A DNA stretch of 64,000 nucleotides from Candidatus Treponema equifaecale (GCA_018064905.1 JAGHUJ010000052.1:13998-77997); one strand, 5' to 3'; positions 3,899 to 58,755 are shown, counted from the stretch's first letter. The notes: generated by a model not told the origin, from the sequence alone. Numbers and translations: made by a program.

Positions 3899-3977
3899 CG
3901 GTGGTTGAGCCAAGTCGAAACCACCTTGTAATTAATGTTGCCGCGATGGTTTCGAGAGCCTCAACCGACGCGGCAAC
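3899..3977. repeat. REP-A doublet (A1 at 3899-3925, inverted A2 at 3937-3977) between convergent genes
   Basis: cggtggttgagccaagtcgaaaccacc followed by gttgccgcg-atggtttcgagagcctcaaccga-cgcggcaac. Confidence 0.9.
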
Positions 3978-3989
3978 AACTTTTTTTCT

Positions 3990-5597
3990 TTAATTCACTG
4001 CTTCGTGGATTGTTTTTCTTACCATTCCTTTGCCGCTTACCATTGCAAGGAAATATTCCTTTGATTTCTGGTAAAGTGGCGAAGATGTAACATCAAATCC
4101 AAATATTTTTTCATTGGCAAGCAGCTTCTTGAATTTTTCTTCAGCATCTGCATTTTTTCCGCCGATTTCAATTCCTTCAAGAATTGGCTTTACGGATGGA
4201 ATGAGTGGATCTGGGGAAAGTTCAAATGCTTTTCCATCGTCATCAACTGCAAGAAGATATCTGGCCCACATTGCAAAAACCAGCGGAACAATTTTGAGTT
4301 TGTTCAAATCAAGTCCCTTTGACTGATAAGCCTTTACTGTCTCACCAAAACGAATCGAAAGCTTCTGGCTTGTATCTGTTGCAATTCGCTGTGGTGTGTC
4401 TGGCATAAATGGATTTGGAAGTCGCTTTGTAATTACTTCGTCAATGAATGATTTTGGTTCAATGATTTTTGGATCAACTACAACTGGAAGTCCTTCTTCA
4501 TAACCCAGAATTTCCACCATTTTCTTAAGGTCAGAATCCTTCATTTCGTCACAAATCAAATTAAAGCCCAAAAGACAGCCTGAAACTGCCAGAGAAGTGT
4601 GGAGAGGGTTCAGACAAGTGCAGACCTTCATCTTTTCAACCTTGTTTACTGTGTCCCTGTCCGTAAAATAAACCCCTGCCTTTTCAAGCGGTGGACGGCC
4701 GTTTGGAAATTTGTCTTCGATTACAAGGTACTGGGGCTCTTCTGCATTTACAAAAGGTGAAATGTAGGTTTTTCGTGAAGTTACCATAAGTTCTGTGTCT
4801 TCAAAACCGTCTTTCTTGAGCATTTCTGCAACCTTTGCATCTGGACGAGGTGTGATTTTATCTATCATTGACCACGGGAAGGCCACTTTTTTGTCATTTT
4901 TCAGGTATTCAATGAATTCCTGCGGAACATAGCCTTTTTTGCACCAGTTTTCTGCAATTTCAACGATAGCTGACTGCAATTTTTCTCCGTTGTGGGAACA
5001 GTTGTCCATGCTGACCATTGTTACAGGCAACTGACCAGCCTTGAATCTTGCAAAAAGAAGTCGTGTAAGATGGCACATGAACATTTTTGCATTTTCTGGA
5101 GTTGTTGCAAAATCTTCCACATAAGCTGGAAGGAGTTTTCCGTCTGGGCCGTAAAGTGCATAGCCTTTTTCTGTAATCGTAAAGGAAACCATTTTAAGGC
5201 TTGGATTTGTGAAGATTTTTTCAAATTCAGCCCAGTCATCCTTTAATTCCGGGTCACAGTTCAAAGCCCAGGCAATTGAACCGATTACTTCCTTTGAAAT
5301 GGAACCGTCTGCCTTTAATGTAACCCCAAGTGTCAGGTTGTCGTGTGCCTTGTAGAGAATGTCGATGATTTCAGGGTCGTGGCTGTTTCCAACTACGATT
5401 CCAGTGTTCATCAGGCCTTCATTCAAAAGCTTCTGGCAAAGTGCTGCAGGGAAAATTCTAAAGATGTTTCCGCCGCCAAAGTGAACCCATTCAGGTGATT
5501 TTTTTGTATTTTCTGAGACCTTTGCATAGTCAAAATCAAAAAGCTTGTAGCCGTTCCATTTTGATTTGTCAGCAAGTTCCTTAAGATTCAGTTTCAT
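3990..5597 (-). CDS. Mannitol dehydrogenase family protein (probable D-mannonate oxidoreductase, UxuB-like)
   Basis: VHFGGGNIFR, SFTITEKGY, SMDNCSHNG, MIDKITP motifs; clustered with uxuA. Confidence 0.85.
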   Translation of the reverse strand: MKLNLKELADKSKWNGYKLFDFDYAKVSENTKKSPEWVHFGGGNIFRIFPAALCQKLLNEGLMNTGIVVGNSHDPEIIDILYKAHDNLTLGVTLKADGSISKEVIGSIAWALNCDPELKDDWAEFEKIFTNPSLKMVSFTITEKGYALYGPDGKLLPAYVEDFATTPENAKMFMCHLTRLLFARFKAGQLPVTMVSMDNCSHNGEKLQSAIVEIAENWCKKGYVPQEFIEYLKNDKKVAFPWSMIDKITPRPDAKVAEMLKKDGFEDTELMVTSRKTYISPFVNAEEPQYLVIEDKFPNGRPPLEKAGVYFTDRDTVNKVEKMKVCTCLNPLHTSLAVSGCLLGFNLICDEMKDSDLKKMVEILGYEEGLPVVVDPKIIEPKSFIDEVITKRLPNPFMPDTPQRIATDTSQKLSIRFGETVKAYQSKGLDLNKLKIVPLVFAMWARYLLAVDDDGKAFELSPDPLIPSVKPILEGIEIGGKNADAEEKFKKLLANEKIFGFDVTSSPLYQKSKEYFLAMVSGKGMVRKTIHEAVN

Positions 5598-5612
5598 ATT
5601 GTTCCTTCTTTT

Positions 5613-6284
5613 TTACTTACTAAAATATTCTGGATAGTCGTTTATCAGCGAATCCACTACTGTTGTCAGCTGCATCAGGTGTGCTTCATCTATTTTTACT
5701 GCTTCTTCAACATTTCCTTCCCTGATTGCCTTTACAAGCGCTGAATGTTCGGCTTCAACGTTGTCGGAAATGTTTTTTGCATTGTAGCTAAGGATTCGGA
5801 TTCTGTGGTCGTTTCCCGTATGGGAATTTATTACGTCCCAAATCCACTGGTTGTCCGAGTGCCTGTAGAAAAAGTAGTGAAGGTTGTCGTCACTTTCCAG
5901 AAAGCTTTTTTTACTTCCACCCATAAGGCTTGCGTGCTGCTGCAACAGAATTGCCTGAAGCTCTGCACCAAAAATTTCAGCCTTGTTGTCCCTTTTTTGG
6001 ATTTCCATGAACTTTTTCAACACGCCAAGCTCAAGGTTAATTCTCATGAACCTTTCCTGAGCAATGATGTTCTTGTCCAAAAAAGCAACGCGGGTTCCCT
6101 TTTGCGGAAAAATATCAACGAGCTTATCAAGTGAAAGCCTTAAAAGTGCGTCACGGATTGGCGAACGGGAAACCTCCAGCTCTTCAATCAGCGTGTTCAC
6201 ATTCAATTCTTCCCCAGGCTTGTAATCAAGATTTGTGATTTTTTCCCTCAAAATTTCGTAAACTGAGCTTTCTGTTTTTTTCAT
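5613..6284 (-). CDS. GntR family (FCD) transcriptional regulator
   Basis: wHTH pattern LEVSRSPIRDALLRL...PQKGTRV; start moved to ATG 6284 (MKKTESSVYE), GGAG RBS 6 nt upstream; the ORF-track extension is translated repeat. Confidence 0.88.
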   Translation of the reverse strand: MKKTESSVYEILREKITNLDYKPGEELNVNTLIEELEVSRSPIRDALLRLSLDKLVDIFPQKGTRVAFLDKNIIAQERFMRINLELGVLKKFMEIQKRDNKAEIFGAELQAILLQQHASLMGGSKKSFLESDDNLHYFFYRHSDNQWIWDVINSHTGNDHRIRILSYNAKNISDNVEAEHSALVKAIREGNVEEAVKIDEAHLMQLTTVVDSLINDYPEYFSK

Positions 6285-6470
6285 AGATTTCTCCACTCGC
6301 TGCGCTCGGTCGAAATGACAAAAAAATATCTGCCAATGTCGAAATGACAAAAAAATATCTGCCAATGTCGAAATGACACAAAAATATCTGCCAATGTCGA
6401 AATGACAAAAAAATATCTGCCAATGTCGAAATGACGCAAAATCAGCTGTCAAAGTTTGAAATGACAAACA
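6285..6470. repeat. REP-B half element plus 29-bp tandem array (4 near-perfect and 2 degenerate units)
   Basis: Unit GTCGAAATGACAAAAAAATATCTGCCAAT starts at 6309, 6338, 6367, 6396; degenerate units at 6425, 6454. Confidence 0.95.
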
Positions 6471-6477
6471 GTTTTCA

Positions 6478-6571
6478 TGTCATCTCGATTCGAATTCCTT
6501 GTCATCTCGATTCGAATTCCTTGTCATCGCGATTCGAATTCCTCGTCATCTCGAGCGCAGTCGAGAGATCT
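6478..6571. repeat. 22-bp tandem array (x3) ending in a REP-B half element
   Basis: TGTCATCTCGATTCGAATTCCT at 6478, 6500, 6522, then CGTCATCTCGAGCGCAGTCGAGAGATCT at 6544. Confidence 0.95.
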
Positions 6572-6572
6572 T

Positions 6573-7640: not shown

Positions 7641-7676
7641 AATTATTAAATTCCCCTTTTTTTACAGCAAAAATAT

Positions 7677-7763
7677 GGGGGAGGGGAGAAGTCTCTCCCC
7701 TGCTTGCAGCCCAAGGTCTGCTTCGACACCCCACTCGCCTAGGGCTCCCGCCCTAAAACCCGC
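7677..7763 (-). repeat. Family E GC-rich hairpin element between dctM and uxuA
   Basis: Hairpins agggc-gggag-ccct and aggggaga-gact-tctcccct on the minus strand; similar start to 57058. Confidence 0.5.
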
Positions 7764-7767
7764 AATA

Positions 7768-13656: not shown

Positions 13657-13717
13657 AAATGAATGAAAATCTCCTATGTTTTATAAGTTACAATAATAAC
13701 ATTACAAACTGTGCAAA

Positions 13718-13863
13718 AAAAGTGGGACGCAGGAAAAAAAAGTTAAGGAGGAGCCAAACAGGAACGAGAACGATTGTTCCCGGGCAGCGCCCAAAGCAAA
13801 GCGATTGAGGCGCGAAAGCCGGAGGATACCTTGGCTTTTTTTCCGTCGCTGGGACCCGCTTTT
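13718..13863 (+). repeat. Family D element, copy 1
   Basis: 5' AAAAGTGGGACGCAGGA(7-8)GTTAAGG and 3' GAAAGCCGGRGGATACCTTGGCTT...CCGTCGCTGGGRCCCGCTTTT shared with 61323. Confidence 0.85.
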
Positions 13864-13880
13864 TTAATTTGTTTATATTT

Positions 13881-14947: not shown

Positions 14948-17900
14948 CTAGTTAAAATATCTTACACCAGCCTGGAAGAGATTCTGGCATGAGTTGCCTG
15001 AACTTTCTGTTGCAGGGTTTCCGGCGATGTTCTTGATCAAATCAGAGCTTGAACCATTTACGCCAGTTCCGACTGTACGTTCTGAGTGACCCATTTTTCC
15101 AAGAACGAGACCGTTTGGAGAAGTGAGACCTTCAATAGCGAATGCTGAGCCGTTTGGATTGTCTGGTTCACAAACTGATGGAACGCCGAATTCATCACAG
15201 TACTGTGAGTAAACCTGTCCCTTCTCAAACAATTCCTTTGCCAAAGATTCGGTGATGTAGATTTTTCCTTCACCATGGCTTACAGGAATGTAGTGTGGGC
15301 GGGCATCCAGAACTGAAGCATCCAAAGCCCAAGGAGAAGCAGCACTTACCATTCTTGTACGAACTACGCGGCTTATGTGGCGGTGAATGTTGTTGTATGT
15401 AAGAGTTGGGTTTTCAGCAGCTGGTTCCATGATTTTTCCAAAAGGAACAAGACCAGTTTTGATCAAAGCCTGGAAACCGTTACAGATACCGAGAACAAGG
15501 TTCTTCTTGTCTTCAAGGTGGGCTGTAACTGCATCAGCAATGCGTTTTTCACGGATTACGTTTGCAATGAACTTACCAGAACCGTCAGGTTCGTCACCAG
15601 CTGAGAAGCCGCCTGCAAATGCGATGATCTGTGAATCAGAAATTTCTTTCTGGAGACCGTTCAAAGATTCTTCCAGATCCTGTGGAGTTCTGTTTCTGAA
15701 TACATAGATTTTAGAATCAGCGCCGGCAAGGTTGAATGCACGGGCCATGTCGTATTCACAGTTTGTACCAGGGAATACAGGAATGATTTCCTTTGGCTTA
15801 GCCTTAGATTTGTCCAACACGGTGATTGAGCTTGTCGAAATTACCGTGTTGCTGCTGGTTTCGACAGGCTCAACCGACGCAGCAAATTTTGCTCTGGCTT
15901 CTGCCAATGTTGGGTGTGAAGCTACTGCCCATTCAGGAAGCTTGTCCTGTTCCTTTGCGCCAGAAACTGGTGGGAATACCTTTGCAAGTTTTGATTCCCA
16001 TGCTGTGTAAAGTTCGTCCAGCTTGATTTCTGCCTTTGGAAGTGGAGCAACGCCCTGCATTTCAAATGAGATGATTGGGTCTTTCTGTGTGTTACCGATT
16101 TTGAATACAGTTGCGTTTACAAAACCGTTGTCCTCAAATTTTGGATCATCTGTTTCAACAAGAATTGAACCGTACTGAGGAGTGAACAAATCAGCTACAG
16201 TGTCGTTTGCGTTTCTGTAGAAACCGATTACTGTTGCAGAAGTTGGAATCTGTGTAAGCTGAACACCAATCTTGTTACCGAATGCCATTTTTGTAATTGC
16301 TTCAGCAATACCACCGGCACCTACAGGATACATTGCGCTGATTTTTCCAGCTTTGTTTGCTTCGTAAAGGGCATCGGAATTCTTTTTGAATGTGTCCCAG
16401 TTTGGAGCAAGTTCTGCAGTATATGGAACCTGAACCAGATAGATGTAGCTTCCGCTCTTTTTGAATGAGCCTGACTGTACATTTTCTGCTTCGTCGTGAG
16501 CAACTGCAAATGAAACCAGTGTGTGTGGAACATTGAGGTTTTCAAAAGTTCCGGACATTGAGTCTTTTCCACCGATTGAAGCACAACCCATTTCTCTCTG
16601 GGCATCAACTGAACCAAGAAGGGCAGCAGTTGGGTAACCCCAAGTTTTTGCATCAACAGTTCTACCAAAGAATTCCTGGTAAGACATTCTTGAAGTTGTG
16701 GCCTTACCACCAATACAAGTGATTTTTGCAAGAGAAGAAAGAACAGCAGTCTGAGCGCCGTGCCATGGAGACCAGTTTGCAACACGAGGATCAAAGCCGT
16801 AAGACATAAGTGAAACGGTTGAAGTTTCGCGAGGAGAAATTACAGGAATTTTTGCAGACATTGCACATTCTGGAGTTCCCTGATATTTTCCGCCAAATGG
16901 GAAAAGTACAGTTGAAGCACCGATAGAACCGTCGAAGCGTTCCTGAAGACCGCGCTGTGAACAGCATGCAAGATCAGACATATTTGCAATGAATGCATCG
17001 TGAATCTGTTCTTTTGTTGGCTGAGCACCTGGATTTTCACCAGTTGCACTGTTTGCATTTCCGAGAACTGCAGAAACAGAATCCAAAGGCTTAACCAGTG
17101 GAGACTGACGGTTTTCAGCAGGACTTTCAATAGAAGCCTTTGCTGTGTGTTCAGCACCAGCAGAATCAAGGAATGAGCGGTCAATGTCAACGATTGTCTT
17201 ACCGCGCCATTTCATTGTGAGCTTGTTTTTATCTGTTACAGTTGCAACAACAACTGCGTTAAGGTTTTCTTCGTTACAGTATTTGATGAACTTTTCTACA
17301 TCACCTGCACGAACAACAACTGCCATTCGTTCCTGTGATTCAGAAATTGCAAGTTCAGTACCGTTAAGTCCTTCATACTTCTTTGGAACTGCATCAAGAT
17401 TGATATCAAGTCCTGGAGCAAGTTCACCAACAGCAACTGAAACACCGCCTGCACCAAAATCGTTTGAACGGCGGATCATGTGGCTAACTTCTGGATTTCT
17501 GAAGAGACGCTGAATTTTTCTTTCTTCAACGGCATTACCTTTCTGAACTTCAGCAGCAGCAGTTGTAACTGATTTTTCTGTGTGAACTTTTGAAGAACCT
17601 GTAGCACCACCAATACCGTCACGGCCTGTACCGCCGCCAAGGAGAATGATGATGTCACCTGCTTCTGGAGTTTCGCGCATTACAGTTGCGTAAGGAGAAG
17701 CAGCGATTACAGCACCAAGTTCCATGCGTTTTGCAAGGTATCCAGGATGGTAAACTTCTGTAACCTGACCAGTTGTAAGACCAATCTGGTCTCCGTAAGA
17801 AGAGAAGCCCTGAGCAGCTTCGCGACAAATTTTTACCTGTGGAAGTTTACCCTGAAGTGTTGCTTCAAGTGGCTGAGTTGGGTCCCCTGCACCAGTTACG

Positions 17901-19039
17901 CGCATTGACTGGTAAACCCATGAACGGCCAGAAAGTGGGTCACGGATTGCACCACCAATACAAGTTGCAGCGCCACCAAATGGTTCGATTTCTGTAGGAT
18001 GGTTGTGTGTTTCGTTTTTGAACTGGAGAAGCCACTGTTCAACTTCTTCTTTGCCTTTTGGGAGAGGATTTCCATCTTTGTCTGTTGTGTAGTGAACGTC
18101 GATGAAGATTGAACATGCGTTGTTTTCTTCAGAAACTTCCATGTCGTCCAGCATTCCGTGCTTGCGAAGGTATTTTCCGCCAACAGTTGCCATGTCCATC
18201 AAAGTTAAAGGCTTGTCCTTGCGTTTTGCATACAAATCTGTGTGCATTGCCTTGTAGTTTTCAAGTGACTGCTTGAAAAGCTTTGCATAAGGTCCTTTTT
18301 CGATTTTGATGTCCTTGAGGACTGTATTGAAAGTAGTGTGACGGCAGTGGTCAGACCAGTAAGTATCAAGAACGCGGATTTCAGTTTCTGTAGGGTCGCG
18401 CTGAATTGACTTAAAGTATTTCTGAAGGAACTGAATGTCCGAAAGATCCATTGCAAGACCCATTTTTGCACGGTATGCGTCCAGTTCTTTCTTTCCATAT
18501 TTGATGAAGCCTTCAACAACTGGAATGTCACCAGGAACTTCTGACTTCATTTCAAGAGTTTCAGGAATTTTTGCGTCGGCAAGGCGTGAATCAACCGGGT
18601 TGATAAGGTATTTCTGAATCTTTGCAGCTTCATCAGCAGAAACGTTTCCAGAAAGGATAACCATTTTTGCACAGCGAACACGTGGAGGTTCAGTTCCAAC
18701 TTTTGCAGTGTTCTTCATTGACTCGCGGAGAAGTGAAAGACACTGTTCTGCTGAGTCTGCGCGCTGGTCGTACTGGCCCGGGAGATATTCCCAGATGATT
18801 ACAGTTTCACCTTCAGCGGCTTTAACTTCATCATAAGCAACGCTGTCGCTCTGTGGCTCTGAGAAAATGCGGAGAGCTGCCATCTTTGATACGTCTTCTG
18901 AAGTATTTTCGATGTCATAGCGGTTAAAGTAACGCACTCCCTTAACTGAGGAAATGCCCAAAAATCCATTGATTTCACTTAAAATGCTCTGAGCTTCACT
19001 CTGGAAGCCAGGCTTGCGTTCAACATAAATACGAAACAT
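14948..19039 (-). CDS. purL: Phosphoribosylformylglycinamidine synthase (single-chain large form)
   Basis: YWSDHCRH, KNETHNHPT, DFGAGG, GGKDSMSG, glutaminase GICNGFQ and HSER motifs. Confidence 0.97.
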   Translation of the reverse strand: MFRIYVERKPGFQSEAQSILSEINGFLGISSVKGVRYFNRYDIENTSEDVSKMAALRIFSEPQSDSVAYDEVKAAEGETVIIWEYLPGQYDQRADSAEQCLSLLRESMKNTAKVGTEPPRVRCAKMVILSGNVSADEAAKIQKYLINPVDSRLADAKIPETLEMKSEVPGDIPVVEGFIKYGKKELDAYRAKMGLAMDLSDIQFLQKYFKSIQRDPTETEIRVLDTYWSDHCRHTTFNTVLKDIKIEKGPYAKLFKQSLENYKAMHTDLYAKRKDKPLTLMDMATVGGKYLRKHGMLDDMEVSEENNACSIFIDVHYTTDKDGNPLPKGKEEVEQWLLQFKNETHNHPTEIEPFGGAATCIGGAIRDPLSGRSWVYQSMRVTGAGDPTQPLEATLQGKLPQVKICREAAQGFSSYGDQIGLTTGQVTEVYHPGYLAKRMELGAVIAASPYATVMRETPEAGDIIILLGGGTGRDGIGGATGSSKVHTEKSVTTAAAEVQKGNAVEERKIQRLFRNPEVSHMIRRSNDFGAGGVSVAVGELAPGLDINLDAVPKKYEGLNGTELAISESQERMAVVVRAGDVEKFIKYCNEENLNAVVVATVTDKNKLTMKWRGKTIVDIDRSFLDSAGAEHTAKASIESPAENRQSPLVKPLDSVSAVLGNANSATGENPGAQPTKEQIHDAFIANMSDLACCSQRGLQERFDGSIGASTVLFPFGGKYQGTPECAMSAKIPVISPRETSTVSLMSYGFDPRVANWSPWHGAQTAVLSSLAKITCIGGKATTSRMSYQEFFGRTVDAKTWGYPTAALLGSVDAQREMGCASIGGKDSMSGTFENLNVPHTLVSFAVAHDEAENVQSGSFKKSGSYIYLVQVPYTAELAPNWDTFKKNSDALYEANKAGKISAMYPVGAGGIAEAITKMAFGNKIGVQLTQIPTSATVIGFYRNANDTVADLFTPQYGSILVETDDPKFEDNGFVNATVFKIGNTQKDPIISFEMQGVAPLPKAEIKLDELYTAWESKLAKVFPPVSGAKEQDKLPEWAVASHPTLAEARAKFAASVEPVETSSNTVISTSSITVLDKSKAKPKEIIPVFPGTNCEYDMARAFNLAGADSKIYVFRNRTPQDLEESLNGLQKEISDSQIIAFAGGFSAGDEPDGSGKFIANVIREKRIADAVTAHLEDKKNLVLGICNGFQALIKTGLVPFGKIMEPAAENPTLTYNNIHRHISRVVRTRMVSAASPWALDASVLDARPHYIPVSHGEGKIYITESLAKELFEKGQVYSQYCDEFGVPSVCEPDNPNGSAFAIEGLTSPNGLVLGKMGHSERTVGTGVNGSSSDLIKNIAGNPATESSGNSCQNLFQAGVRYFN
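15817..15885. repeat. REP-A doublet in-frame inside purL
   Basis: acacggtgattgagcttgtcgaaattaccgtgt followed by ttgctgctggtttcgacaggctcaaccgacgcagcaa; homologous to 3899-3977. Confidence 0.88.
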
Positions 19040-23872: not shown

Positions 23873-23875
23873 GGA

Positions 23876-23903
23876 AAACTAAAAGTTAAGAGCTAAAAGT
23901 TAA
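23876..23903 (+). repeat. Heptamer array (4 units)
   Basis: aaactaa aagttaa gagctaa aagttaa. Confidence 0.6.
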
Positions 23904-23924
23904 AAGGGGAATTCTGATTGTAGC

Positions 23925-24267
23925 CGGTGGTTGAGCTCGGTCGAAACCACCATTATCAAAGAATTTATGGAATACGGGTATACCTATATTTTGGAATGTT
24001 CTGATGGTTCATATTATGTTGGCAGTACAAACGATTTAGAGCGGAGAATTGCTCAGCATAATGCAGGAGAAGGATCTGAATATACTAAACCCAGGTTGCC
24101 TGTAAAGCTTGTATACTTTGAAGAATGTTTAAGCATAAAAGAAGCTTTTTTACGGGAAAAGCAGATACAAGGCTGGAGCAGAAAAAAACGTGAGGCGTTA
24201 ATTGAAAAGCAGCATGAAAAGTTGCCAGAACTTGCTAAAAAGGTGGTTTCGACAAGCTCAACCACCG
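23925..24267. mobile_element. Candidate REP-A/GIY-YIG cassette: inverted REP-A copies (23925-23951, 24242-24267) enclosing the nuclease core
   Basis: Left cggtggttgagctcggtcgaaaccacc; right reverse complement cggtggttgagcttgtcgaaaccacc. Mobility is inferred, not shown. Confidence 0.55.
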
Positions 24268-24353
24268 AAACTGCATCACCAGACTCTGGTATCGAAACTG
24301 CAGAACCAGGCTCTGGTACCGCTACAGCACTAAGCTCAATCACCCCAGATTGA
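23967..24353 (+). CDS. GIY-YIG nuclease (UPF0213/YhbQ-YazA-like) with repeat-derived C-terminal tail
   Basis: GYTYILECSDGSYYVGST, RRIAQHN, YTKPRLPVKLVYFEE, REKQIQGWSRKKREALI; start moved to ATG 23967; tail runs through REP-A and 27-bp repeats. Confidence 0.9.
   Translation: MEYGYTYILECSDGSYYVGSTNDLERRIAQHNAGEGSEYTKPRLPVKLVYFEECLSIKEAFLREKQIQGWSRKKREALIEKQHEKLPELAKKVVSTSSTTETASPDSGIETAEPGSGTATALSSITPD
24264..24344 (+). repeat. 27-bp tandem duplication plus degenerate REP-A arm
   Basis: accgaaactgcatcaccagactctggt (24264) and atcgaaactgcagaaccaggctctggt (24291); taagctcaatcacc at 24331-24344. Confidence 0.8.
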
Positions 24354-24383
24354 TAAAACCGTACAGCAACAGGAGTTTTAACT

Positions 24384-25553
24384 ATGAACAACAGACCAGA
24401 TAGATTTTCAACATCAATGATGAATATTCCGCCTAGTGGAATTCGTAAGTTTTTTGAGATGCTCATTGGGCATGATGATGTAATTTCCCTTTCAGTTGGT
24501 GAGCCTGACTTTCCTACTCCTTGGGTAATGCGTGAAGAAGCATATTATCACCTTGAAAAAGGCCACACTTCATATACTTCAAACTGGGGTTTAATCGAAC
24601 TCCGTGAAGAAATTGCAAAGTACATGGAACGCTACGGAATGTACTACAATCCAAAGAACGAAGTGCTTGTAACTGTTGGTGCTTCTGAAGGTGTTGATGC
24701 AGTTCTCCGTGCAATTTTGAATCCTGATGATGAAATCATTGTTGTTCAGCCATGTTATGTTAACTACACACCGCTTGCTGAGCTTTGTCAGGCAAAAATT
24801 GTTCCGATTGATTCAAGCGTAAACGGCTATTATCCAACTGCAGAACAGATTAAGGCTGCAATTACTCCAAAAACAAAGGCCGTAATGATCTGTTCTCCAA
24901 ACAACCCGACTGGAACAATGATTCCAAAGACTGAATTGGAAAAAATCGCAAAGGTTGTAGTAGAAAACAAAATCTGGTGTATTTCAGATGAAATTTACTG
25001 CGAGCTTGCCTACGAGGATGCTGAACACGTTTCAATCGGTTCTTTCCCTGGAATGAAGGATTATGCAATTATTCTTAACGGATTCTCAAAATCCTTTGCT
25101 ATGACTGGATGGCGTATCGGCTACATTGCTGCCTGTGCAGAGCTTCTTGCTCAGATTGTAAAGCTTCACGGCTACAACACAATCTGTGCTCCGATTTTCT
25201 CTCAGTATGCTGCTGTTGAAGGTTTGCGCCACGGCTGGAAAGATGTTGAAAAAATGCGCGTAAGCTATCAGCAGAGACGAAATTTAATGTACAAGGCTTT
25301 CTGTGACATGGGGCTTCCAGTTCCAGAGCCAACAGGTGCCTTCTATATGTTCCCGGATATCACTTCAACAGGTCTTACTTCTGAAGAATTTGCCACACAG
25401 CTTTTCCAGAAGCACAATGTTGCAGTAGTTCCTGGAAGTGTGTTCGGTCTTGGTGGTGAAGGTCATATCCGCTGTTGTTATGCAACCGGAATTGATAAAA
25501 TGAAAATCGCCCTGGACAGAATCGCTGAATTTGTCGCTGAATTAAAGAAATAG
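24384..25553 (+). CDS. Class I/II PLP-dependent aminotransferase (YugH/AspB-like)
   Basis: ISLSVGEPDF, SPNNPTG, ISDEIY, NGFSKSFAMTGWRIG motifs. Confidence 0.93.
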   Translation: MNNRPDRFSTSMMNIPPSGIRKFFEMLIGHDDVISLSVGEPDFPTPWVMREEAYYHLEKGHTSYTSNWGLIELREEIAKYMERYGMYYNPKNEVLVTVGASEGVDAVLRAILNPDDEIIVVQPCYVNYTPLAELCQAKIVPIDSSVNGYYPTAEQIKAAITPKTKAVMICSPNNPTGTMIPKTELEKIAKVVVENKIWCISDEIYCELAYEDAEHVSIGSFPGMKDYAIILNGFSKSFAMTGWRIGYIAACAELLAQIVKLHGYNTICAPIFSQYAAVEGLRHGWKDVEKMRVSYQQRRNLMYKAFCDMGLPVPEPTGAFYMFPDITSTGLTSEEFATQLFQKHNVAVVPGSVFGLGGEGHIRCCYATGIDKMKIALDRIAEFVAELKK

Positions 25554-25563
25554 ATGAAAATGA

Positions 25564-25727
25564 AATGGGGCTGTCTAATAGGTAATGATTTGTCATTTCG
25601 AGTGAAGTCGACAAGCACAATCGTTTTCGTGCTTGTTTGTAATCTATAATTCTTTGTATCACAATGATTTACAGACCTCTCCACTACGGTCGAGGTGACA
25701 CCTGCGAACTTTTAGGACAGCCCCATT
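25564..25727. mobile_element. MITE-like element, copy 1, with a 110-bp REP-B core (25591-25700)
   Basis: 12-bp terminal IR AATGGGGCTGTC/GACAGCCCCATT; core TGTCATTTCGA...TCGAGGTGACA; second copy at 27984. Confidence 0.7.
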
Positions 25728-27946: not shown

Positions 27947-27983
27947 CTTTTTAAAAAAGACAATATGTTGAAAAGATAAAAAA

Positions 27984-28142
27984 GTGGGACGTCCAATAAG
28001 TAGTAATTTGTCATTTCGACCGAAGTCGACAAGCACAATCGTTGTCGTGCTTGTTTGTAATCTATAATTCTTTGTATTACAAGAATTTATAGACCTCTCG
28101 ACCATGCTCGAGGTGACATTTTTAAACTTTTGGGACAGCCCC
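27984..28142. mobile_element. MITE-like element, copy 2, with a 110-bp REP-B core (28009-28118)
   Basis: Aligns along its length with 25567-25724; right end GGGACAGCCCC intact, left end diverged. Confidence 0.7.
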
Positions 28143-28167
28143 TTTTTTATTTTAAACTTATCTTGCG

Positions 28168-32234: not shown

Positions 32235-32672
32235 TTATTTTTCTTCAAACCAGTTTTCCATGCCGAAATTGAAAACCTCTGCAATTTTCTGAAAATGCTT
32301 TGTGTTTCGTGTTACCAGAATCAGGTTGTTGGAAATTGCAATGGCTGCCAGCTGACAGTCTTCGTATGGAACCGGAGTTCCTTTTTCTTTGAGACGTCCA
32401 AAAATTTCAGCCTGAACACTTGCTGCTTTCTGGTCATATGGGAGCACAGGAAAAACGGGCAGGATTTCATTCTGATAAAAATACGCCAGTTCCTGTTTGC
32501 GTCTGCCTTCTGGCATAACTGCGATTCCCTTCTGTATTTCATAACTTGTGGTTACACCAATTGCAGAAAATTCTGAAAGTGCATCAAGCTGATGAATTAC
32601 ATTATGGTTTGGATTCGGCTTGATCGCCTCTGATATTGTATTAGTGTCCAAAAGATAAATTTTTAAAGCCAT
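32235..32672 (-). CDS. vapC: PIN-domain toxin
   Basis: YLLDTNTISE, YEI, EDCQLAAIA, LVTRNTKHF motifs. Confidence 0.9.
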   Translation of the reverse strand: MALKIYLLDTNTISEAIKPNPNHNVIHQLDALSEFSAIGVTTSYEIQKGIAVMPEGRRKQELAYFYQNEILPVFPVLPYDQKAASVQAEIFGRLKEKGTPVPYEDCQLAAIAISNNLILVTRNTKHFQKIAEVFNFGMENWFEEK

Positions 32673-32962
32673 GGATTTTCCTCTTCTGATCTATGAATTT
32701 CAAATTTTTTAGCTTCCTCAATAGCCTGTTCCAGATAATCACCAATGCAGTCCGGGTGTTCTGCCCGCCATTTTCTGACTCTGTCCATAAAGCTTGGGGC
32801 GGTTCGACGGGCGTGTTCTTCCTTTAGGTTTGTGTATTCCTTAAGGCTGATGATTACTGCTGTAGTGATTCCATGTTTTGTGATTTCGATTACGTCTCCG
32901 TTTTCTGCGCGGGTCACGTATTCTGAAAATTTTGCCTTGATGTCGTAAAGTGGTGCTGTCAT
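32663..32962 (-). CDS. Phd/YefM family antitoxin
   Basis: YDIKAKFSEYVTRAENGDVIEITKHG...AVIISL; overlaps vapC start by 10 nt. Confidence 0.88.
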   Translation of the reverse strand: MTAPLYDIKAKFSEYVTRAENGDVIEITKHGITTAVIISLKEYTNLKEEHARRTAPSFMDRVRKWRAEHPDCIGDYLEQAIEEAKKFEIHRSEEENPWL

Positions 32963-37600: not shown

Positions 37601-37726
37601 GCACCAGCGATGGTAGCCCCGTAGTTCTGAAATTGCGGCGGTGGTTGAGTTTATCGAAACCTCCAGAGCAATTTTAGAATGAAGCGAAAGCGAAAGGGCG
37701 AACGTAGCGACCCGACAGGGTGGTGC
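37601..37726 (+). repeat. Composite element: family C-like shell with nested REP-A (37639-37664)
   Basis: Reverse complement aligns with 56880-56980; stem ttctgaaattgc/gcaattttagaa encloses REP-A. Confidence 0.8.
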
Positions 37727-46699: not shown

Positions 46700-46714
46700 G
46701 AGTGGAAGAATGGA

Positions 46715-46740
46715 CGGTGGTTGAGCTTGTCGAAACCACC
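46715..46740 (+). repeat. REP-A copy
   Basis: cggtggttgagcttgtcgaaaccacc. Confidence 0.92.
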
Positions 46741-46758
46741 AGTCTGCTGGAGGCATAT

Positions 46759-50006: not shown

Positions 50007-50122
50007 GTCATTTCGACTAAGCGAAGCGCATGGAGAAATCTTGCTTAATTTAAAATAGATTTCTCGACTACGCTCGAAATGACTGTAAAAAGGTAACGCT
50101 CGAAATGACTGTAAAAAGGTAA
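50007..50122. repeat. Complete REP-B element (50007-50083) with 26-bp duplication of its right end
   Basis: GTCATTTCGACTAAGCGAAGCGCATGGAGAAATCT...AGATTTCTCGACTACGCTCGAAATGAC; CGCTCGAAATGACTGTAAAAAGGTAA at 50071 and 50097. Confidence 0.9.
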
Positions 50123-50580: not shown

Positions 50581-51578
50581 AATCAATAAAAATCAAATTT
50601 TTTTCTATATTTTTATCTGTAATGGCTTTGAATTTTATCGGCTGCAAAAAATCTGGCGAAAATTCAGCTTCATCAAAATCAAAAATCAATGTTGTTGCCA
50701 CAATTTTTCCTTTTTACGACTGGACCAAAAACATTTCGGCAGGTTCAGAAAAAATTAATCTGGAGCTGCTTGTAAAAAATGGCGTTGATTTGCATTCGTT
50801 TCAGCCAAGTGCCGGGGATATCATAAAAATTTCTTCCTGCGATGTCTTGATTTATGTTGGCGGTGAAAGCGATTCATGGGTTGATGACGTGTTGAAAAAT
50901 CCCGTGAATAAAAATCAGAAGGTTATAAAACTGATGGAAGTTCTTTCTGATTCTGTTAAGGAAGAAGAAATCGTTGAAGGAATGGTGGTGACCACAGACT
51001 CAACCACCGAGGAAACAGGCTCAATCACTGAAGATGATGAAATTGAATATGACGAGCATGTGTGGCTTAGTCTTGTGAATGCCAAGATTTGCTGTGAAAA
51101 AATTGCAGAAGTTCTGGCAACATTGGATGAAAATGAAAAATCGATTTTTGAAAAAAATCTTTCTGACTACACGGCACAAATTGACGGCGTTTGGAAAAGT
51201 TTATTTTCGGCAGAAAACATTTCAGAAAACCAAAATGCAATCATTATTTGTGACAGGTTTCCATTCAGATACATGGTTGATGAATTGGGAATAAAATATT
51301 TTGCGGCTTTTGCAGGGTGTTCAGCAGAAACTGAAGCCAGCTTTGAAACAATTGCATTTCTTTCTGGAAAAGTTCAGGAACTGGGATTGAACCGGGTTTA
51401 TGTAACAGAAAGTTCTGACAAAAAAATTGCAAGAACCGTAATAAAAAATGCAGGCCTGACGGAAAATGAATGCAAAATCATTGTCTTGAATTCAATGCAG
51501 AATGTGACAATGGCTCAGGCTCAGAACGGAATAAGTTACATTGAAATAATGAAGAAAAATTTTGAGGAATTAAAATAA
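50577..51578 (+). CDS. Zn/Mn ABC transporter substrate-binding lipoprotein (ZnuA/AdcA-like)
   Basis: Lipobox FIGC; DLHSFQPS, DEHVWLS, DRFPFRY motifs; ATG overlaps fur stop (ATGA). Confidence 0.88.
   Translation: MKSIKIKFFSIFLSVMALNFIGCKKSGENSASSKSKINVVATIFPFYDWTKNISAGSEKINLELLVKNGVDLHSFQPSAGDIIKISSCDVLIYVGGESDSWVDDVLKNPVNKNQKVIKLMEVLSDSVKEEEIVEGMVVTTDSTTEETGSITEDDEIEYDEHVWLSLVNAKICCEKIAEVLATLDENEKSIFEKNLSDYTAQIDGVWKSLFSAENISENQNAIIICDRFPFRYMVDELGIKYFAAFAGCSAETEASFETIAFLSGKVQELGLNRVYVTESSDKKIARTVIKNAGLTENECKIIVLNSMQNVTMAQAQNGISYIEIMKKNFEELK
50984..51009 (-). repeat. Degenerate REP-A copy inside the metal-binding protein gene
   Basis: ggtggtgaccacagactcaaccaccg, 20/25 identical to 24242-24266. 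Confidence 0.55.
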
Positions 51579-53698: not shown

Positions 53699-53747
53699 TT
53701 GACAGGTGTTTCTATCTACAGTAACATTGTTACTATAAATAGAAACA
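53699..53747 (+). promoter_or_regulatory. trpE promoter overlapped by a 41-bp palindrome
   Basis: TTGACA at 53699; arms 53707-53726 and 53728-53747 are 18/20 complementary. Confidence 0.8.
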
Positions 53748-53758
53748 ATGAGGTAACT

Positions 53759-55186: not shown

Positions 55187-55192
55187 GAAAAA

Positions 55193-55218
55193 GGTGGTTT
55201 CGACTGGCTCAACCACCG
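55193..55218 (-). repeat. REP-A copy in the 42-bp trpE-trpGD gap
   Basis: ggtggtttcgactggctcaaccaccg. Confidence 0.92.
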
Positions 55219-55228
55219 TGGAGAAAAT

Positions 55229-56827
55229 ATGATTTTAGTTATCGACAATTACGACTCGTTCACTTTTAACGTTGTTCAGAGTCTTCAGATGTATACAAAC
55301 GAAGAAGTAAAAGTTGTCCGCAACGACGAATGCACAATCGAACAGCTTGCTGCAATGAATCCAGCATATCTGGTAGTTTCACCAGGACCGGGAAATCCAA
55401 GTCAGGCTGGCGTAAGCGTTGAAGCAATCAAATATTTTGCAGGAAAAATCCCTATTCTGGGAATCTGTCTTGGTCATCAGTCAATCGGTCAGGCATTTGG
55501 TGCAAAAATCGTACACGCAAAAAATGTTTGCCACGGAATCGTTCAGGACATTAAATTGGATGGCAAAGGACTTTTCCGCACAATCGGAAAATCATGCAAG
55601 TTCACACGATATCACTCACTTGTAATCGATGAATCAACATTAAGCGATGAATTTGAAATTACAGCCCGTGCAGAAGACGGTGACATTATGGGTATCCGTC
55701 ACAAGACTCTTCCAATTGAAGGCGTACAGTTCCACCCAGAAAGCATTGCTTCGGACAAATGCCGTGAACTTTTCCAGGCTTTCATTAAATACCGCCGCGA
55801 AAATCTTGATGTACCGGCATATTTGAACCAGCTCATTGCAAAAAAAGATCTTACAGAAGAACAGGCCGCAATGTTCATGGAATATGTAACAGACGGAAAC
55901 ATGGAACCAGCCGTAATGGCAGGTATTTTGATTGCCATGGCTTCAAAGGGAATTTCAGCCAGCGAAATGATTGGTTGTGCCCGCACTCTGCTTCTCAAAA
56001 AAACACCATTCCCATGCGAAAAGAAAGGACTTGCTGAAATCGTAGGAACTGGTGGCGACGGAAAGGGTTCATTCAACATTTCTTCACTTTCGGCAATTGT
56101 AGCAGCCAGCTGTGGTCAGCCAATGGCAAAACACGGAAACAGAGCAGTTTCATCAAAATCAGGTTCTGCAGATTTCTATGAAAATCTCGGAATCAACATC
56201 ATGGCAGCCCCAGAAAAAACAGCCCAGCTTGTTGAAAAAACAAATTTCGGCTTCCTGATGGCACCAGTTTATCATGCCGCAATGCGTTTTGCCGGTCCTG
56301 TAAGAAAGGCTCTGGGTGTAAAAACTGTCATGAACGTGCTTGGACCACTTTTGAATCCGGCCGGAGCTGAATATGAGGTTCTTGGTGTATATTCAAAGGA
56401 TCTTCTTCAGGATTACGCCCGCTCAGCAAAATCGCTGGGAGCAAAACGCGTAATTGTTGTGTACTCTGATGACGGTTACGATGAAATTTCACCATGCGCT
56501 CTGACACACGCATATCTGATTGATGAAAAAGGTAATGAAAGTCAGTTTACAATCGATCCAGCCAAGTTTGGAATTACAGATGCAGATGAAGAAGAACTGA
56601 TGGGTGGAGACGGAGCAGCAAATGCAGCACTTGGTCTTGAAATTCTCAAAGGTGCAGGCAAAAAGACAATCCGTTATGCAGTAGGCTTGAACACAGCTGC
56701 AATTCTTTACATTACAGGCCGCGCAAAAAACCTCAAGGAAGGCTACGACATGGCTCTGAACGCATTGGACACTGGAAAAGCCATGGCAAAACTGGAAGAA
56801 ATTCAAGCCGTAAGTAAGAGTTTGTAG
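55229..56827 (+). CDS. trpD: Bifunctional anthranilate synthase component II / anthranilate phosphoribosyltransferase (TrpG-TrpD)
   Basis: IDNYDSFT, SPGPG, GICLGHQ, QFHPES; VGTGGDG, KHGNRAVSSKSGSAD motifs. Confidence 0.95.
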   Translation: MILVIDNYDSFTFNVVQSLQMYTNEEVKVVRNDECTIEQLAAMNPAYLVVSPGPGNPSQAGVSVEAIKYFAGKIPILGICLGHQSIGQAFGAKIVHAKNVCHGIVQDIKLDGKGLFRTIGKSCKFTRYHSLVIDESTLSDEFEITARAEDGDIMGIRHKTLPIEGVQFHPESIASDKCRELFQAFIKYRRENLDVPAYLNQLIAKKDLTEEQAAMFMEYVTDGNMEPAVMAGILIAMASKGISASEMIGCARTLLLKKTPFPCEKKGLAEIVGTGGDGKGSFNISSLSAIVAASCGQPMAKHGNRAVSSKSGSADFYENLGINIMAAPEKTAQLVEKTNFGFLMAPVYHAAMRFAGPVRKALGVKTVMNVLGPLLNPAGAEYEVLGVYSKDLLQDYARSAKSLGAKRVIVVYSDDGYDEISPCALTHAYLIDEKGNESQFTIDPAKFGITDADEEELMGGDGAANAALGLEILKGAGKKTIRYAVGLNTAAILYITGRAKNLKEGYDMALNALDTGKAMAKLEEIQAVSKSL

Positions 56828-56829
56828 AA

Positions 56830-56864
56830 AATTAGGAAGTAGGAATGAGGAATTAGGAGTTTGG
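56830..56864 (+). repeat. Heptamer array (5 units)
   Basis: aattagg aagtagg aatgagg aattagg agtttgg. Confidence 0.75.
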
Positions 56865-57004
56865 AGGTTCCGGCGGCAAGCCGCCGTCGGGCTTTTCGTG
56901 GTTCCGCCTTTCGGCTCCATTCTAAAATCACTATGGAGGTTTCGACAGGCTCAACCACCGCCGTGATTTTAGAACGCCTGCGGCGCCACTACAATCCCTA
57001 ACCC
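56863..57004 (-). repeat. Family C element with nested REP-A (56935-56960)
   Basis: Reverse complement GGGTTAGG...GCCCGAC...GGAACCTCC; perfect 12-bp stem ttctaaaatcac/gtgattttagaa encloses REP-A. Confidence 0.8.
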
Positions 57005-57057
57005 GAGAAATCGAAAAGGTAAAAACTAAAAGTTGTCAGTGGGAAAAATCTGGGATT

Positions 57058-57231
57058 CTTAAGGGCGGAGCCCTTAAGCGGTGCCGGGAAGTTGGGAGGT
57101 TTAAGGAGGGAAGAAACCCTCGCTTCCGAGTAGGTAGGGAGTGCCAGGAGAGTGAAAAACGCATGAGATGCGTTTTTAGCGAGTCTCTTGAACAGCTATG
57201 CTGTGAAAGGTTGCTTCCCTCCTTATCCCCT
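57058..57231 (+). repeat. Family E large hairpin element
   Basis: cttaagggc-ggag-cccttaag hairpin; long stem aaggagggaag.aacc / ggtt.cttccctcctt; inner aaaaacgcat/atgcgttttt. Confidence 0.55.
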
Positions 57232-57249
57232 GACATGGAAATGTCAAAA

Positions 57250-58755
57250 ATGAAAAATGTAATCGCTGAAATAGTTGAAAGACGCAAAAAGGACATTGCT
57301 GAGAGAGGATATTCTTTTGGGTTTGAAATACCTGAAAAACGAACTCGTCCAGTAAATCCCTTCATGGCCGAAAAAGGCGTGATTCTTGAAGTAAAGCGGG
57401 CCAGCCCAAGTAAGGGTGATATTGCTCCAGGTTTGGATTCCGCTGAAACAGCCAGAAAATATCGTGCCAATGGTGCCAGTGCTATCAGCTGTCTTACTGA
57501 AGAAAATTATTTTAAGGGCAGCCTGCAGGATTTGATGAACGTTTGCAATGCAGTTCCAGATGTGGCAGTTTTGCGAAAGGATTTTCTTATTGATGAAGAA
57601 GAAATCGACATTGCTTACCGTTGTGGTGCAGATGCTGTTCTTCTGATTTCTGGAATGCTGACTCTGGAAAAAATGCTTTCCATGACAAAAAAGTGCAGGG
57701 ATCTTGGAATCCGCGCTCTGGTGGAAGTCCGCACACTGGAAGATGCAGATAAGGTTCTTGAAGTAAAAAAACAATATGCAGATACAATCGTTTGTGGTGT
57801 TAATTCAAGAAACCTTAAAGACTTTACAATCGATCTTCTGGTTCCGGCAATGCTCAAAGAAAAACTGGGCGGCAAAGTTATTTTTGAAAGTGGAATCACA
57901 ACACCGGACGCAGCAGCAAAAATCGGTTCAATGGGCTTTACGGGAATTCTTCTTGGTGAATTTGCCGCACGAAATCCTGAAAAAGCCGGAGAATTTGTAA
58001 AGGCCTTCAAGCAGACAGATGAAAATGCCTGCGGAAGAAAACTGATTGACCTGGCAGTTAAAATCAACAGACATGCACATGATTCTGTTGAATCAGCAGA
58101 AAAAAAGATGGTTTCGACAAGCTCAACCACCGTTCATAAAGACAACGGTTTTGACGTGGTTCAGTCTGCTAAACCTATGGTAAAAATCTGCGGCCTTACA
58201 CGCAAAGAAGATGTTCTTCTGGCAGATTCATTGGGTGCAGATTTTGTGGGCTTCATTTTTGCCACAGAATTTGGTCGCAACGTGTACGGAGAAAAATTCG
58301 ACGCGCTTAAGGATTGTCTGAAAACTGTAAAGGCTTACAAGGTTGCGGTTGTAACAAGACCTGAAACAGAAGAAGCAAAGGCTGCGGCTGAACTGGTAAA
58401 ACAGGGCGTGCTGGATTTTGTTCAGCTCCACGGAATTGAATACGAAGCAATGCCAGAATACCTGAAAGAAGTTCCACACTATTTTGCAGTGACTTCAAAA
58501 ACAGAAATCGAAAGTTCAAGAACCGATGCATTGATTGCAAAAGGCGAGCCAAGATTTCTTCAGGACTGCCGGGAGCACAAATATGGAACGCTGGATCACC
58601 TGTGGCTTGCAGGCGGCGTAACTCCAGAAAATGTGGCCCAGCTGATTTCAGACTTTAAGCCAGAACTGGTAGATGTTTCAAGCGGAGTTGAAGACGAAGG
58701 AAATTTAGGCGTAAAGAATCCAGAAAAATTGAAGAAATTTTTTGAAGAAGTGTAG
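57250..58755 (+). CDS. trpC: Bifunctional indole-3-glycerol phosphate synthase / phosphoribosylanthranilate isomerase (TrpC-TrpF)
   Basis: EVKRASPSKG, LRKDFL, GVNSRNL, ESGI; VKICGLT, VQLHG, LAGG, DVSSGVE. Start uncertain (57235, 57241 or 57250). Confidence 0.92.
   Translation: MKNVIAEIVERRKKDIAERGYSFGFEIPEKRTRPVNPFMAEKGVILEVKRASPSKGDIAPGLDSAETARKYRANGASAISCLTEENYFKGSLQDLMNVCNAVPDVAVLRKDFLIDEEEIDIAYRCGADAVLLISGMLTLEKMLSMTKKCRDLGIRALVEVRTLEDADKVLEVKKQYADTIVCGVNSRNLKDFTIDLLVPAMLKEKLGGKVIFESGITTPDAAAKIGSMGFTGILLGEFAARNPEKAGEFVKAFKQTDENACGRKLIDLAVKINRHAHDSVESAEKKMVSTSSTTVHKDNGFDVVQSAKPMVKICGLTRKEDVLLADSLGADFVGFIFATEFGRNVYGEKFDALKDCLKTVKAYKVAVVTRPETEEAKAAAELVKQGVLDFVQLHGIEYEAMPEYLKEVPHYFAVTSKTEIESSRTDALIAKGEPRFLQDCREHKYGTLDHLWLAGGVTPENVAQLISDFKPELVDVSSGVEDEGNLGVKNPEKLKKFFEEV
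58107..58132 (-). repeat. REP-A copy in-frame in the TrpC-TrpF linker
   Basis: gatggtttcgacaagctcaaccaccg, encoding MVSTSSTT. Confidence 0.88.

Follow-up and report, generated by a model that had tools for sequence, protein, structure and literature searches.

Why should a short, imperfect palindrome keep the same mismatch and the same one-sided tail at a dozen scattered sites, and which protein, if any, reads it? The question is raised by a 64,000-nt stretch of Candidatus Treponema equifaecale (GCA_018064905.1 JAGHUJ010000052.1:13998-77997; GC content 42%), referred to here as the window, from the start of which copy coordinates are counted. An initial annotation had described in it a repeat family, REP-A, and had proposed that REP-A is recognized as a hairpin by a protein rather than serving simply as a terminator. 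Our analysis points to a candidate for that protein: the window encodes a small single-domain GIY-YIG nuclease, of which REP-A is probably the cognate hairpin repeat, in a partnership resembling the Ssn system of Neisseria. In that system, NTS hairpins lie on either side of the gene for SsnA of N. meningitidis, a GIY-YIG protein of 94 aa with a single domain (CDD cd10448). SsnA binds the hairpin in single-stranded DNA (ssDNA), where it recognizes just one of the two strands and cuts upstream of the hairpin; it is inactive on double-stranded DNA and RNA, does not bind RNA, and modulates natural transformation (Chenal et al. 2025, Nat Commun; PMC11893778).

The repeat is far more frequent in the window than chance would predict. 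The sequence GGTGGTTGAGC is matched 11 times at ≤1 mismatch, where 0.99 matches are expected and none of 100 shuffles attains that count, and GGTTTCGAC 8 times, against 0.34 expected. Each of the 12 copies listed initially is present at its given position, where chance would supply about one, and we add a thirteenth, a half-copy relic at 24320-24345 on the minus strand. A covariance model trained on hairpins from unrelated metagenome loci alone, with the window sequence excluded, recovers 10 copies in the window with E ≤ 0.005, all of them on a single strand (46713-46743, for example, scores 39.1 bits on the plus strand and 9.3 bits on the minus strand), and weakly matches the subtype A2 copy at 3942 and a decayed copy at 50981 (E 0.5-0.8).

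The consensus, C-GGTGGTT-GAGC-N2-3-GTCGA-AACCACC, consists of a 7-bp stem, an asymmetric core (TGAGC-N2-3-GTCGAA), and a pyrimidine lying 5′ of the stem, without a partner and on just one of the two strands. This one-sided tail holds up in two collections: in a set of 90 low-GC copies, all distinct, C occupies position -1 in 62% and T in 25%, with the would-be partner being G in just 28%, and the family alignment of the unbiased set has a conserved C at the eighth position 5′ of the stem, where it stays unpaired. The internal mismatch is likewise conserved and extends wider than had been described, the GAG...CGA core remaining constant while the stem covaries. The description of subtype A2 needs correcting: its hairpin is longer, with a further outer stem of 7-8 bp enclosing a related core, either TGAGG-CTC-TCGAA or TGAGC-CT-GTCGAA. 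The flank logo contains the single 5′ pyrimidine and nothing else, with no GTAG or CTAC tetranucleotide at the hairpin foot. Solo hairpins often occur as +/- doublets with a tight 17-18-nt spacer (23 pairs, vs 11 -/+ pairs), which is the layout of the nuclease cassette described next, minus its gene.

The candidate partner gene is bracketed by the inverted REP-A copies at 23925 (+) and 24242 (-). GIY-YIG is the sole Pfam domain of its open reading frame (ORF; 71.4 bits, E 7.8e-20), NCBIfam holds no informative model for it, and 1759 homologs were recovered. The structure predicted by AlphaFold (predicted local distance difference test score of 90) adopts a β-β-α-β-α fold, and Y7, Y17, R27, H31 and E64, which we take to be the catalytic Tyr, Tyr, Arg, His and Glu from what is known of I-TevI, are invariant among 32 sequences. 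The top structural matches found with Foldseek are the UPF0213 structures 1ZG2 and 1YWL and the nuclease Slx1 (root-mean-square deviation of ~2 Å over 73 residues), and UPF0213 is also closest by sequence (E 6e-16 and 3.6e-12), with scores of 61-75 bits against YazA, BH0048 and EF2693.

The association of this gene with the hairpin recurs in most of 80 independent metagenome loci that were chosen by homology to the window nuclease protein alone. With "near" defined as ≤300 nt from the gene, the density of exact-core hairpins (GAGC-N2-4-GTCGA) is 1.60/kb near the gene and 0.039/kb elsewhere, and that of generalized hairpins (a 6-bp stem enclosing GAG...CGA) is 4.08/kb and 0.126/kb, respectively. 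At least one generalized hairpin lies near the gene in 75 of the 80 loci, and hairpins lie on both sides in 40, many of the remaining loci being truncated. The nearest upstream hairpin is predominantly in plus orientation (26:5) and the nearest downstream one in minus orientation (19:9), forming an inverted pair like that of the window. Among perfect 7-bp hairpins taken without selection on the core, the GAG..CGA or TGA..GAA signature makes up 67% near the gene and 6% far from it, and many loci of 10-20 kb, such as L121 and L180, carry hairpins at the gene only.

Gene and hairpins also appear to travel together. At the DNA level, the window resembles the cassettes of loci L120-L123 exactly from 23926 to 24266, that is, from hairpin to hairpin, with unrelated flanks (hisB-asnC/aminotransferase, in the his operon, in the window, and serC-serA in L120-L123). 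A Treponema metagenome-assembled genome (MAG) whose serC is 90% identical (L118) provides the empty site, with serC and serA 13 nt apart and no hairpin, and at this same point L120-L123 have a hairpin(+)-ribosome-binding site-gene-hairpin(-) inserted. As the empty site is hairpin-free, both hairpins came with the gene. Furthermore, one gut metagenome contains a contig that joins 23873 to 24384 without the cassette, alongside the filled form, and read depth spikes over the hairpin; the public sequencing runs hold distant relatives only (≤14% of words) and were used for presence or absence alone. A different arrangement is seen in an Ignavibacteriales MAG (L003, 250-1100), where the nuclease gene lies between direct, not inverted, copies of a ~120-nt unit that holds the gene's own 3′ end and two hairpins of different stem classes. 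Phage carriage was considered and rejected, 2.9 million viral contigs having yielded 2 weak protein relatives and 6 motif matches.

Both the hairpin and the protein vary. In the unbiased set, stem pairs 1-7 covary, with a score of 0.447 vs 0.193 when shuffled (0 of 500 shuffles) and slid-partner controls at ≤0.19; columns 7-25 hold GC (47) and CG (38), columns 8-24 hold GC (40), AU (23) and CG (23), and columns 9-23 hold CG (65) and UA (32). In all core classes, namely GAGC-YT-GTCGA, GAGC-GNA-G[TC]CGA, GAGG-NNC-TCGA and long-loop forms, the 5′ half holds GAG and the 3′ half CGA. The C-terminal tail of the nuclease sorts with these classes: tails with ...AYRD... accompany GAGG-Nx-TCGA (20 of 21 loci agree), ...NYTQ... 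accompanies GAGC-N2-GTCGA (6 of 6), ...ECMNE... accompanies GAGC-N3-G[TC]CGA (7 of 8), and LAKK[VI][FW][KR] accompanies long-loop hairpins in most such loci, without a separate tally. Judged from the sequences, this sorting fits a putative co-evolving recognition. Overall protein identity (75.8% within a hairpin type vs 73.3% between types) is confounded by shared descent, and we therefore relied on the categorical comparison of tails and cores, to which the same caveat applies to a lesser degree.

Taken together, these data suggest a mechanism in which the 7-bp covarying stem clamps an invariant asymmetric core, T-GAG...CGA-A. On the GAG...CGA strand, we infer that this core can form T-A, G.A, A.G and G-C, i.e., tandem G.A/A.G mismatches closed by a G-C pair, and the complementary strand would carry pyrimidine-pyrimidine mismatches. 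Two inverted hairpins and the nuclease gene constitute a unit of ~340-400 nt, gained or lost en bloc, and solo hairpins and +/- doublets of the same class are dispersed in the genome. Genic copies probably survive where the linker peptides that they encode, rich in Ser/Thr or acidic, do no harm. Given its homology to SsnA/NTS and the identical architecture, the nuclease most likely binds the hairpin formed in ssDNA, and would recognize only the GAG...CGA strand with its 5′ pyrimidine, cutting nearby. It may then either spread the repeats or use them, for instance in restricting incoming ssDNA.

A looser relationship between gene and repeat has to be weighed against this, namely that the hairpins are independent of the nuclease (used by the host, or mobilized otherwise), and that the GIY-YIG gene is a selfish homing gene at pre-existing hairpins, or a passenger in a hairpin-bounded miniature inverted-repeat transposable element. 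GIY-YIG homing endonuclease genes are mobile, the direct repeats of L003 include the gene's own 3′ end, actinobacterial hairpins occur without a nuclease gene nearby (see below), and linkage would also explain the sorting of tails with cores. Nevertheless, we consider this scenario unlikely, as the empty serC-serA site lacks a hairpin, many long loci have hairpins at the gene only, and the Ssn nuclease directly binds its flanking repeat (PMC11893778).

The placement of the window copies (Table 1) bears on a second alternative, in which they are ordinary intrinsic terminators or mRNA-stabilizing stem-loops at gene ends and the nuclease is a coincidental neighbor. Such a role would accommodate the 7 of 13 copies that lie within ~110 nt after a stop codon, as well as the T5 or longer runs that follow the GAG strand at 24242, 55193 and 58107. 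Those T-runs, however, are on the strand opposite the local genes, 5 of the 13 copies are in frame inside ORFs (purL, trpCF, znuA and the nuclease tail), a T-rich 3′ flank occurs in only 6 of the 90 distinct copies, and the orientation of the window copies relative to local transcription is 6:6. Terminators would also have no reason to keep an identical 22-nt sequence across genomes of 30-74% GC, and a 30-40-fold concentration around one gene family would not be expected of them. We thus regard this explanation as very unlikely; rather, the ORF copies, the rarity of T-tails and the balanced orientation indicate insertions that persist where harm is small.

These features of placement, flank and orientation are one of three lines that support the initial proposal of a hairpin read by a protein. 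The others are the candidate partner encoded between inverted window copies, an arrangement that recurs in most of the loci sampled, and the homologous Ssn/NTS pair, which works biochemically by strand-specific hairpin recognition in ssDNA (PMC11893778).

Table 1. REP-A copies and the candidate partner gene in the 64,000-nt window; bit scores and E values of repeats are from the covariance model.
Feature	Position	Strand	Placement and remarks
REP-A A1	3899..3925	+	6 nt past the stop of hydrolase gene 2948-3892, in a convergent intergenic gap; 26.7 bits, E 2e-5
A2	3937..3976	-	8-bp outer stem, 4-bp inner stem, TGAGG-CTC-TCGAA; -12.7 kcal/mol, z -4.2; weak match, E 0.5
REP-A	15820..15845	+	within purL (14948-19039, -); peptide TVISTSSITV; 35.3 bits
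A2-type	15848..15887	-	within purL; peptide FAASVEPVETSSN; 28.3 bits
REP-A	23925..23951	+	left terminal hairpin of the GIY-YIG cassette; ends 15 nt short of the ATG
Single-domain GIY-YIG nuclease gene	23967-24353	+	candidate REP-A partner; core ~92 aa, ORF 128 aa; tail encoded by hairpin DNA
REP-A	24242..24267	-	closes the GIY-YIG cassette on the right; peptide KVVSTSSTTE, part of the nuclease tail; top-scoring window copy, 43 bits, E 2.8e-10
Relic half-copy	24320..24345	-	left arm and GAGC only; missing from a variant contig (joint 24270-24334)
REP-A, ACCTCC variant	37639..37664	+	after hisD; tip of a longer hairpin (TTCTGAAAT...ATTTTAGAA); 18.8 bits
REP-A	46715..46740	+	15 nt beyond the feoB stop; 39.1 bits
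Decayed REP-A, core mutated	50984..51009	-	within znuA; peptide MVVTTDSTTE; 11.4 bits, E 0.77
REP-A	55193..55218	-	fills the 42-nt trpE-trpGD spacer; a relative has a different hairpin there
REP-A, ACCTCC variant	56935..56960	-	tip of a longer hairpin, in the 422-nt trpGD-trpCF gap; 38 bits
REP-A	58107..58132	-	within trpCF, in the IGPS-PRAI interdomain linker; peptide MVSTSSTTV; 40 bits

The genic copies repay a closer look. All A1 copies in ORFs share one frame, in which GTG GTT TCG ACA AGC TCA ACC ACC is read as VVSTSSTT. The copies at 15820 and 15848 together form an insert of ~20 aa in the PurL linker that precedes the GATase domain, and this segment (FAASVEPVETSSNTVISTSSITV) is missing from purL homologs. 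Similarly, the closest trpCF homologs (78% identity, 473-474 aa, from Treponema or Spirochaetes MAGs) lack the ~27-aa segment that bears the copy, and other Treponema lineages have different hairpin-derived peptides in the same linker (RRLSLSKS, VVEPVETT and VVSSASTT). Eight copies are listed as intergenic (3899, 3937, 23925, 37639, 46715, 55193, 56935 and the region of the 24320 relic), the relic being entered under both placements, as the tail of the nuclease ORF holds it together with the copy at 24242. The copies at 3899 and 3937 are the first and second half of an A1/A2 doublet.

In the trp operon (55187-61480), the window has four pieces that are extra relative to the corresponding region of a 78%-identical relative (L208, 6889-13739), whose operon is without any REP-A: the REP-A copy in the trpE-trpGD spacer, the trpGD-trpCF gap (10 nt in L208), the trpCF linker insert, and a gene for an Rce1-like CAAX protease (58792-59862) between trpCF and trpB. 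The trpE-trpGD spacer of L208 (8335-8388) holds a different hairpin, GGTAGTTCAGtctgtCTGAACCGCC, with similar outer arms, a perfect stem and no GAG...CGA core. The two copies with ACCTCC arms sit on the tip of a shared longer hairpin (GTTCTRAAAT...ATTTTAGAATG; 37620-37690 and 56915-56985) that is followed by GCCGAAAGGC-like sequence, and the pair looks like a composite sub-family.

A classical REP or REPIN element mobilized by a RAYT (an IS200/IS605-type Y1 transposase) encoded beyond the window would share the short imperfect palindrome and one-sided tail with REP-A, and the +/- doublets resemble REPINs. Against this, a scan of ~50 window ORFs turned up neither Y1_Tnp nor any other transposase domain, the GTAG tetranucleotide is absent, and the gene bracketed in the 75 loci is a GIY-YIG gene and not a RAYT, which leaves such an origin with very little probability. 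That the repeat acts as RNA (a structured motif, small-RNA target or riboregulator) is very improbable: stem covariation is compatible with an RNA helix and tandem G.A pairs are common in RNA motifs, but no Rfam family is matched at gathering thresholds, SsnA does not bind RNA, as noted above, and, with both orientations to transcription equally frequent, half of the transcripts would carry the pyrimidine-mismatch strand.

The motif is spread widely. We scanned one genome per species for the exact REP-A motif and found it in at least 119 stretches, against ~2 calculated to arise by chance, from Spirochaetota, Bacteroidota, Actinomycetota and other phyla: at least 54 loci are from Actinomycetota, at least 38 from Treponema/Spirochaetales, at least 18 from Bacteroidota, and at least 9 together from Ignavibacteriales, Cyanobacteria, Chloroflexota, Planctomycetia, Rifleibacteriota and other or unassigned taxa. 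Among the matches listed, the GC content of the motif loci runs from about 30% to 77%, and a nuclease homolog is also encoded in 3 of the 8-kb motif loci, each time ≤300 nt from the motif. A near-identical 22-nt sequence across genomes of 30-74% GC is a mark of horizontal spread. We note that the motif also goes beyond solos and doublets, forming head-to-tail arrays with periods of 30, 45 and 50 nt (L056 7780-7951, L073 2854-3034, L005 1478-1550) in Actinomycetota and one cyanobacterium.

Several observations weigh against the partnership of REP-A with the GIY-YIG nuclease, or against parts of the mechanism proposed for it. A single nuclease gene is seen beside 12-13 copies in the 64-kb window, and among the matches listed the 8-kb actinobacterial motif loci contain no nuclease gene of the window clade, so that the partnership is unproven in Actinomycetota. 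The sorting of tails with cores could stem from co-inheritance of a linked unit and not from recognition. Nearest-neighbor folding gives both strands equal stem energy, the program seeing the 7-bp stem only; thus, the G.A-paired core is a model, and it is from the conserved purine mismatch, together with the 5′ pyrimidine, that the proposed strand choice is drawn. An alternative core with a bulged GA fits GTCGA and CTCGA, although not GCCGA. Finally, GIY-YIG enzymes cut DNA and are not known to rejoin it, so that cutting by itself would not account for the spread of solo copies.

Alongside REP-A, the window contains a second hairpin family, GTCAYYTC-GAGC-GNA-GTCGA-GARATC, at 6545-6569 (+), 25592-25616 (+), 25675-25699 (-), 28010-28034 (+), 28093-28117 (-) and 50059-50083 (-). 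It has the GAGC...GTCGA core of REP-A, but a C-G pair adjoins this core, and the 5′ tail, GTCA, recalls the tag of NTS and the related SRM hairpins discussed below; it too fails the SRM pattern, and no second nuclease gene was seen in the window. Two tandem arrays, of a 29-nt unit repeated five times (GTCGAAATGACAAAAAAATATCTGCCAAT; 6309-6453) and a 22-nt unit repeated four times (TTCCTTGTCATCTCGATTCGAA; 6473-6554), are composed of half-sites of this family and lie at the start of a GntR-type regulator gene (5613-6467, -), upstream of uxuA. A 165-nt direct repeat of 84% identity (25563-25727 and 27981-28145, bounded by GGGGCTGTCC and GGACAGCCCC), each copy of which carries two second-family hairpins in +/- orientation, flanks a solute-binding-protein gene and a gene with TPR and Mrr_cat (restriction-endonuclease-like) domains, and the block between the repeats may be an insertion. 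A further repeat of ~150 nt (13717-13864 and 61322-61442; ~85% identity over 73 nt) starts with AAAAAGTGGGACGCAGGAAAAAAA, ends with GGATACCTTGGCTTTTTTTCCGTCGCTGGGACCCGCTTTTT and has no Rfam match; one copy fills the trpB-trpA gap, which measures 3 nt in L208. At 32235-32962 (-), the gene for a 145-aa PIN-domain protein overlaps an upstream 99-aa ORF by 10 nt, a VapBC-type toxin-antitoxin layout.

How does this system relate to those already described? REP/REPIN elements with RAYT transposases, reportedly described by Nunvar in 2010 and by Bertels and Rainey in 2011 (PMC3116915), offer one comparison. They resemble REP-A in being short imperfect palindromes with an asymmetric tail and inverted doublets, and in the single-copy gene that lies between inverted copies of the repeat on which it presumably acts; their partner, however, is a transposase of the HUH/Y1 type, which both cuts ssDNA and joins it again, whereas here it is a GIY-YIG nuclease, not known to join DNA, and there is no GTAG tag. 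By sequence and fold, the nearest relatives of the nuclease are UPF0213 (B. subtilis YazA, BH0048 with structure 1ZG2, and EF2693 with structure 1YWL) and the nuclease domain of Slx1. Unlike the window gene, yazA belongs to a conserved trmNF-yazA-rsmI operon without flanking hairpins. Slx1 cleaves branched and hairpin DNA in a structure-specific manner, and, in contrast to the single-domain window nuclease, it requires Slx4 and a RING domain. A literature search found nothing relevant that joins GIY-YIG with REP, REPIN, YhbQ or UPF0213, and no follow-up to the Ssn paper. Cyanobacterial small dispersed repeats were set aside as an identity for REP-A, the literature offering nothing relevant and the host being a Treponema.

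The Rickettsia palindromic elements (RPEs) are said, in work by Ogata and co-workers in 2000, to lie in frame within protein-coding genes as units of 100-150 nt that encode peptides at tolerant positions, with no partner enzyme defined. REP-A shares with them the in-frame palindromic insertions and differs in length (26 nt). A link is possible, as Rickettsia is listed among the genomes rich in SRM hairpins (PMC11893778), the "SRM" being the hairpins that flank SsnA homologs in several phyla, in a system that its authors liken to RAYT/REP (PMC11893778).

The closest parallel is with Ssn/NTS itself, in which the partner is likewise a single-domain GIY-YIG protein of ~94 aa with its gene between inverted hairpin repeats, the repeat is dispersed in many copies and directional, with a conserved one-sided 5′ extension, and variants of protein and repeat pair with one another. 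Measured against the features of the Ssn/SRM systems, the window protein falls within the partner size of ~90-150 aa, hairpins lie on both sides of its gene, and the copies are dispersed. It is homologous to N. gonorrhoeae SsnA (~32% identity, 42 bits), an ortholog flanked by many NTS copies that was retrieved from a mislabelled PLSDB record; this score falls short of the SsnA clade as delimited by BLASTP to N. meningitidis SsnA (E < 1e-10, ≥75% coverage). For every one of the 82 window-clade proteins, a UPF0213 profile gives the better score (mean of 81 bits, vs 65 bits for an Ssn-clade profile), both hidden Markov models being small (4-5 sequences) and the reference groups cross-scoring at just 22-45 bits. 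The published SRM pattern, HGTCWYN(0-2)YYVSBRHN(0-5)WNVSBRGN(0-2)RNCYNB, has 0 matches on the REP-A copies and 0 near the 80 genes, and the positive controls (Neisseria NTS, Rhizobium and Sinorhizobium) were matched. Furthermore, the core has an obligatory internal mismatch in REP-A and a perfect stem in NTS, ~35% of window REP-A copies are inside genes vs 2% for NTS, and the hosts here, Spirochaetota and Bacteroidota, are unnamed in the main text of PMC11893778. There are also points of contact, in that subtype A2 begins with CGTC, as does NTS, and the Ssn-clade genes of Planktothrix and Spirosoma have flanking GTCAT-tagged hairpins that also carry a GAG...CGA core.

Tentatively, and with slightly less than even confidence, we suggest that the window represents a second, previously undescribed GIY-YIG lineage, nearer to UPF0213/Slx1 than to SsnA, with its own hairpin partnership: a tandem G.A-mismatch core in a freely covarying stem, a short C-terminal helix that co-evolves with the core/loop class (at least four matched classes), a 22-nt sequence that has changed little in crossing at least 6-8 phyla, and peptides inserted in frame into housekeeping enzymes. 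Such a lineage, if real, would supply new, naturally diversified site- and structure-specific ssDNA nucleases. Confirmation of the partnership would provide a testable function for part of the long-uncharacterized UPF0213-like proteins, make the matched tail/core classes natural specificity variants for enzyme engineering, and account for the VVSTSSTT, VEPVETT and SLSK peptides found in the linkers of conserved enzymes and at predicted protein ends. The 2025 work on Ssn established that ~94 aa of GIY-YIG domain can suffice for a nuclease that acts on ssDNA site-specifically, with genomic hairpin repeats as its targets (PMC11893778), and the window suggests that this principle reaches a separate protein clade, a mismatch-bearing hairpin grammar, and new hosts, among them gut and rumen Treponema and Bacteroidota. 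By the two criteria tested, the window system is outside the Ssn family; it is best explained as an Ssn-like partnership of nuclease and hairpin, of the same kind but on a different branch.

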